10,325 bases of DNA from a virus (taxonomy: Duplodnaviria > Heunggongvirae > Uroviricota > Caudoviricetes), in the IMG/VR virus record IMGVR_UViG_2706794669_000004; one strand, given 5' to 3'. The notes below the pieces were generated by a model. The model had not been told where the DNA came from and ran no database searches. It saw only the letters and a list, made by a program, of their open reading frames with translations. Each line of letters opens with the position of its first letter. Within the stretch, counting starts at the first letter, position 1. The translations under genes were made by a program, and so were the position numbers. Below are positions 5,608 to 6,165 of the stretch, in pieces.

Positions 5608-5780
5608 GCTTAGTCAGCCGTTGTCTCCGGGTGTCGCGTGCGCAGTTGCACGTCATTCTCAGACGAACCGATGACTGGATGGATGGCCGCCGCAGTCGTC
5701 ACACTGATGATACGGATGTGCTTCTCCGTATACACCATGTTATCGGAGAGCTGCCCACGTATGGTTATCGTCGGGTATGG
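5565..5780 (+). pseudogene. insD: IS2 transposase OrfB (InsD) 5' fragment, truncated
   Basis: Frame -1 relative to insC; product matches InsD through ...[13 protein letters not shown] and then diverges into a short unrelated tail ([12 protein letters not shown]-stop). The catalytic DDE domain is entirely absent. Confidence 0.85.
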
Positions 5781-6165
5781 ACCTCCTCCCCGGAGGGGGG
5801 CATTTCATTATTTTTCTAATCGTTACTGGTGAGAAGGCGGAAGAAAAAGCCAGTTCTTCGCCCCTAAATAACAGCATGATTCCAGTCCATGCAAAATCTG
5901 ATTTCCAGCTCACACATACCGAGCGCTGTACAAAAAACCGCCAGCCAAGGCAGTTAAGAGTGTGTTCCCGGGGTTTGCTTAGAATATTTTGTAAGTTGTC
6001 CGAAGAGATATTTACAACACCAGAATGATGAATCATCAGTCCCCTGCCAGAGGTTCACTACGTAACCTGACCGACAATGCACCATTCTGGTGCTGAAAAA
6101 AGAGCACTGGAACTGCAACAAAACAACATCACAGAACAGGAGATGGTAAGGAGTCAGACATTCCC

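Follow-up and report, generated by a model that had tools for sequence, protein, structure and literature searches.

The lysis cassette of phage 21 comprises the pinholin S21, the signal-anchor-release (SAR) endolysin R21, and Rz/Rz1. Its class II holin gene lies directly upstream of the endolysin gene and overlaps it. Holin-independent release is typical of endolysins of the R21 type. Prophages of Shigella sonnei, such as those of Ss046 (CP000038.1), CP104423.1, and LR213449.1, carry genes for DnaB, RusA, Q, and an anti-repressor, followed by four tRNAs, a spacer, the lysis genes, HNH, and terminase. These prophages keep a 71 amino acid holin and its 248 bp leader. Five insertion sequences, IS2 among them, have expanded across all Shigella species, and gene loss there has been convergent (PMC7373316). 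Losses of other insertion sequences have been described for ISApl1 (Tn6330) and for IS629 with IEE, in which the element and flanking DNA are deleted and the joint lies at a very short shared sequence, usually with the whole element and little else being lost.

The window analysed here, a stretch of 10,325 nucleotides from an IMG/VR virus record (IMGVR_UViG_2706794669_000004), has the gene order of the S. sonnei prophages and shares with them an IS2 beside dnaB. It has 0 mismatches to Ss046 over positions 2524-5150 and 5782-10325, and is 100% identical to CP104423.1 over 1131-5150 and 5782-8818. Ss046 was reached through an exact-protein look-up of the anti-repressor gene (6714-7475), the counterpart of the region being found around positions 2,931,518-2,940,279 of CP000038.1. 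By its sequence, the window is assigned to a lambdoid prophage of the S. sonnei type with phage 21-type lysis. The DNA on both sides of the scar described below is the same in Ss046, CP104423.1, and LR213449.1, but these three lack IS2 at the scar. Where the window has the IS2 piece, Ss046 carries 441 bp (CP000038.1 2,934,145-2,934,585), made up of 193 nt from the 216 nt holin gene and the 248 bp leader upstream of it.

The holin gene is intact in all of the relatives examined. The sequence from 5782 onward is contiguous with it in Ss046, in five other S. sonnei assemblies, and in enteroinvasive E. coli (EIEC) strains. The 433 bases to the right of the joint, starting from 5782, have 99-100% matches in nine EIEC-type E. 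coli, where the spacer leads into a class II holin gene and then into the lysozyme and Rz genes. Neither the left nor the right joint of the scar is spanned in any of the complete E. coli genomes. These comparisons bear out the losses that an earlier note, made from the window sequence, had proposed: the right half of IS2 is gone (nt 631-1331), as is the 5' portion of the holin gene (193 nt), and the quantity of phage DNA removed, which the note had left open, can be sized at 441 bp from the intact relatives. The features of the region are listed in Table 1.

Table 1. Positions of the features found in the window, with the strand and the basis for each.
Feature	Position	Strand	Basis
Rz gene	4170-4646	-	Pfam Phage_lysis
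R21/RrrD-type lysozyme gene, intact	4631-5128	-	Pfam Phage_lysozyme (2e-45)
Holin gene remnant, last 23 nt	5128-5150	-	Alignment with Ss046
IS2 stub (IS2 nt 1-630)	5151-5780	+	Alignment to full IS2 copies, 1 mismatch in 630
insC, intact	5242-5607	+	Pfam HTH_Tnp_1 match (PF01527, 2.4e-19)
A6G programmed frameshift motif, AAAAAAG	5559-5565	+	Sequence reading
insD codons 1-72, without DDE catalytic domain	5565-5780	+	Alignment
Orphan base A	5781		IS2 has G, every intact phage relative has T
Remaining part of the 680 bp non-coding tRNA-holin spacer	5782-6213	-	100% to S. sonnei, 99-100% to nine EIEC-type E. coli
Terminator-like hairpin, retained	~5936-5955	- (late strand)	Terminator scan on the intact locus
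Phage tRNA cluster: Gly-TCC, Thr-TGT, Arg-TCT, CAT anticodon	6214-6524	-	ARAGORN and Rfam
Second IS2 right end, complete-looking variant allele	10255-10325	-	TGGATTTGCCCC right-end motif starts at 10255

Because its lysozyme is approximately 96% identical over 165 amino acids to the solved RrrD (4ZPU) and phage 21 (3HDE) lysozymes, the cassette is judged to be of the phage 21 type. The lysozyme itself is likely to be a SAR endolysin, and the DNA of its gene is 100% identical in S. sonnei. As in phage 21, both lysozyme and Rz are encoded, but the window retains only the last six codons of the holin gene (KAARGE), with the stop codon and 2 nt. In Ss046 the holin is an S21-like class II protein (PF04971) that ends in DKRKAARGE, its gene overlapping the lysozyme ATG. 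The Shine-Dalgarno sequence and ATG of the lysozyme gene have been kept within the 23 nt that lie between this gene and IS2. The lysozyme and Rz genes were left intact, and so were the HNH, terminase, and portal genes downstream.

A full IS2 is 1,331 bp, and two complete copies from E. coli records served as the alignment reference. The stub is 99.8% identical to nt 1-630, the single mismatch being a T for A at IS2 nt 87 (window 5237), which sits between the insC Shine-Dalgarno sequence and the insC ATG. At the left, the terminal repeat TAGACTGGCCCC... begins at 5151 and directly abuts holin sequence, which is an exact element boundary. At the right, the match ends at 5780 after GTATGG, where IS2 goes on GCGCTGCTTCGC and the window goes on ACCTCCTCCCCG. 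Base 5780 closes codon 72 of insD, counting from the GTG at 5565. The earlier note had placed the end of the IS2 similarity at this codon and had reported the right terminal repeat as missing. Both observations hold, since the alignment shows no IS2 homology beyond 5780 and the right end GGGGCAAATCCA is absent anywhere in the window in the orientation that matches the stub. Both of the full IS2 copies examined are flanked by 5 bp target duplications. At the stub the presumed target, CTTAC at 5146-5150, is left as a single copy, the second copy of the duplication being absent. No Pfam family was matched by the 84 amino acid insD stub, which is without the DDE (rve) domain. As both the catalytic domain and the right end are missing, the stub is a non-mobile fragment that can neither move nor be moved.

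The two parental endpoints read GTATGG followed by G in IS2 and CTACGG followed by T in the phage, and thus share GG and nothing more. When random endpoint pairs were simulated on the reconstructed intermediate, about 15% had at least 2 nt in common. The 2 nt microhomology is therefore compatible with chance, and neither supports nor excludes a microhomology mechanism. Eight intact relatives all read ...TTTTTTCTACGGT immediately followed by CCTCCTCCCCGGAGG... across the joint position. Across approximately 7.2 kb, base 5781 is the sole difference from Ss046 outside the IS2 piece. Because this only differing base sits exactly at the joint, the A very probably arose during joining, unless it is a sequencing error. 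The earlier note had raised the prospect that another mobile element, or a known IS2 variant, might begin at 5781. From 5782 onward the sequence is ordinary phage leader, 100% identical to the S. sonnei prophage, and 5781 fits neither parent, and neither of the outcomes that the note had named as refuting it was seen. A 7-mer formed at the joint, TATGGAC (5776-5782), recurs inside IS2 at 5548-5554; with a chance of approximately 8% in 1.3 kb, this repeat is judged coincidental.

The earlier note had also drawn attention to a short hairpin (CCTCC-CC-GGAGG) and a run of six G residues at the joint. These are present, but they are neither products nor marks of the joint: the stem-loop and G-run at 5782-5801 are native phage sequence, since they are found in all eight intact relatives. 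A hairpin with a loop of 2 nt cannot form, and the versions of the stem that can fold have 4 nt loops. The folding energy of the region as single-stranded DNA is only -4.4 to -4.9 kcal/mol, a z score of about 0 against shuffled sequences, and a role for the hairpin in guiding the deletion was rejected since the DNA folds no better than the shuffles. In a consensus scan the hairpin is terminator-like on the plus strand of the window, antisense to late transcription. The length of the G-run (5795-5800) varies among the S. sonnei assemblies, being mostly G6, with G7 in JBEAAD010000003 and G5 in LR213449, and it reads GGAGGTGGG in one EIEC strain. This variation is either homopolymer sequencing error or real slippage.

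The most economical account of the locus, to which a probability of roughly 0.7 is given, is the insertion of IS2 followed by a single illegitimate deletion. In the first step, a normal transposition would have brought IS2 into the holin gene at its 3' end, 22 nt before the ATG of the lysozyme gene, and CTTAC would have been duplicated. This step is suggested because the left joint coincides exactly with the start of the left IS2 repeat, a precision taken to mark a genuine transposition. Complete E. coli genomes, GTDB representatives, and JGI metagenomes yielded no strain that carries IS2 in full length at CTTAC, and for this reason the insertion as a separate event is one that we infer rather than observe. 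In the second step, a single deletion of 1,147 bp would have been made by illegitimate, essentially homology-independent joining. It would have taken IS2 nt 631-1331 (701 bp), the right copy of the target duplication (5 bp), and 441 bp of phage DNA, that is the 193 nt of holin gene and the 248 bp of leader, and would have left endpoints sharing only GG, plus one wrong base, the A, at the joint. The endpoints lie in unrelated sequences that have 2 nt in common, as in illegitimate deletion. The net result of this step can be read directly from the window and its relatives, and the mechanism is what we infer.

The earlier note had called the event an IS-mediated adjacent deletion. In the canonical form of such a deletion, an IS end makes an intramolecular strand transfer into nearby DNA, the IS stays complete, and the deletion begins exactly at the terminal repeat. 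Here the joint is at the internal position nt 630/631 and the right repeat itself has been deleted. No other IS end abuts the joint, the DNA from 5782 onward being phage leader. On this evidence the joint is not the product of transposase strand transfer, and IS2 was a victim of the deletion. An IS does lie at the deletion, and Shigella genomes are rich in IS-driven rearrangements (PMC7373316), but given the position of the joint this explanation is extremely improbable. The interpretation in the earlier note is thus upheld for what was lost, and not for the label given to the mechanism or for the emphasis placed on the hairpin.

It is conceivable, although unlikely, that the deletion was initiated by the transposase without being completed by it. 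In that case the right end of IS2 would have been cleaved and the resulting nick or break, or the copying-out replication, wrongly resolved, with a strand switch or resection and rejoining linking IS2 nt 630 to leader sequence 441 bp away. The missing end is IRR, the donor end, at which cleavage occurs in step I of the IS2 pathway (PMC3299598). That the right end was lost and not the left is, however, a 50:50 outcome. Copy-out-paste-in elements have been lost at microhomologies of 2-4 bp, with some of the endpoints within the IS, and these IS-removing deletions have been modelled as strand switching during copy-out (bioRxiv 10.1101/2023.06.07.543989). The joint in the window is at a similarly short shared sequence, and a misincorporated base there would fit an error-prone polymerase step. 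The described excisions are, however, near the length of the IS, and those of ISApl1 and IS629 usually take little besides the element, whereas here the right 53% of the IS was removed with 441 bp of flanking DNA. The sequence holds nothing that separates a transposase-initiated deletion from a spontaneous one. If the transposase did initiate the event, the joint would still be illegitimate, but the lesion would be IS-made and the 'IS-mediated' wording of the earlier note would be partly rescued. A more specific version, in which the joint is the fossil of an abortive IS2 copy-out, with cleavage at the right end setting off replication or resection, a template switch to nt 630, and a wrong base at 5781 from an error-prone polymerase, is more doubtful still.

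The failure to find a full-length intermediate would be accounted for by a one-step aberrant integration, as would the presence of one precise and one ragged joint. In such an event only the left end of the IS2 minicircle would have been transferred into the holin gene, and the broken circle and target would have been trimmed and rejoined, yielding the stub and the 441 bp target loss at once. No such IS2 product is described in PMC3299598 or bioRxiv 10.1101/2023.06.07.543989, and more unusual steps are needed than for insertion followed by deletion. The absence of the intermediate is also weak evidence, with S. sonnei having been sampled through exact-protein look-ups only. This route is considered very unlikely. 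The second IS2, at 10255, was rejected as a recombination partner: it is inverted relative to the stub, so that an inversion, not a deletion, would be expected.

The joints themselves were sought in other collections. A 33-mer across the right joint had no match in GTDB species representatives, IMG/VR, or JGI metagenomes, and one across the left joint had none in GTDB representatives or JGI metagenomes. Exact-sequence look-ups of the products of six junction-specific ORFs found none on record in the NCBI, ENA, JGI, and Logan gene calls. In S. sonnei the holin is intact in 5 of the 5 lysozyme contexts listed, from 34 contigs, a sample that covers 24 of the 3,085 index blocks holding the identical lysozyme. 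Two apparent leads were set aside. A 20 bp likeness between the left flank of the stub and the DNA beside an IS2 in a porin gene is a partial chance match at an unrelated site, and a match in strain MSB1_6C linking IS2 and tRNAs is to an unrelated IS2 beyond the antiterminator gene. The scar therefore appears to be private to its source strain.

With the joint confined to the window, and IS2 being multicopy with a second copy 4.5 kb away, a false junction could be imagined through an assembly mis-join within the repeated IS2. Errors of repeat collapse, however, join unique flanks at the ends of an IS or swap its flanks. An internal IS position fused to unique DNA, with a clean and co-linear loss of 441 bp, is not expected from them, and each flank otherwise matches perfectly, with order and orientation as expected. 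An artefact of this kind is hardly credible, and insertion followed by deletion is retained as the preferred account.

To the right of the joint, the spacer that remains shows mere scraps of similarity to deposited phages. No Rfam family was found in the tRNA-holin spacer and its 98 amino acid ORF had no Pfam or PHROG match. On these grounds the spacer was judged to be neither another mobile element nor a known phage module. This ORF (5740-6036, minus strand) crosses the joint, altering its last ~13 residues, and is annotated as a gene in some S. sonnei assemblies. Its odd composition and its lack of any Pfam or PHROG family make it unlikely to be a genuine gene. The deletion also removed a terminator-like hairpin that lies 41 nt upstream of the holin ATG in intact copies. 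This is a strong terminator-like hairpin, AGGCCATCAG...CTGATGGCCT then TTTTTTCTTTC, on the late strand at 5876-5902 of the Ss046 locus, and it is absent from the window.

On the late strand, the tRNA cluster precedes the lysis genes. Its CAT-anticodon tRNA (6448-6524) is called 'Met' by ARAGORN, whereas in the EIEC relatives the equivalent gene is given by RefSeq as tRNA-Ile (lysidine type). Matches above the Rfam gathering score to isrK, C4 antisense RNA, its a1/b1 targets, and sRNA-Xcc1 were found between Q and this cluster, at 7315-7730 on the minus strand. These matches lie in the 5' part of the gene for the ORF6N anti-repressor (6714-7475) and just upstream of it, and resemble a P1-type c4/ant-like immunity module. 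The second IS2 is inverted relative to the stub and runs off the window. It is also present in Ss046, where the match goes through 10325 and insC/insD lie beyond. Several differences from the reference allele are found in its terminal 70 bp, for example CACCTG for CATCTG. From the position of this IS2, approximately 100 bp upstream of the gene for the phage DnaB, it can be suggested that the prophage was probably already defective before the scar was formed.

The scar is ordinary prophage decay, of a kind that is already understood, and adds one further case of IS-linked gene loss in Shigella, which has already been documented at population scale. It could act as a lineage marker of the source strain. 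Were the joint indeed the fossil of an abortive copy-out, it would mean that members of the IS3 family destroy themselves in Shigella through strand switching, the route proposed for IS629/IEE and ISApl1. The main value of the finding is for annotation. The stub should be seen as an immobile pseudogene, from which the small InsC protein may still be expressed, and this copy of the prophage as holin-less. With the holin gone, any lysis would rest on holin-independent release.
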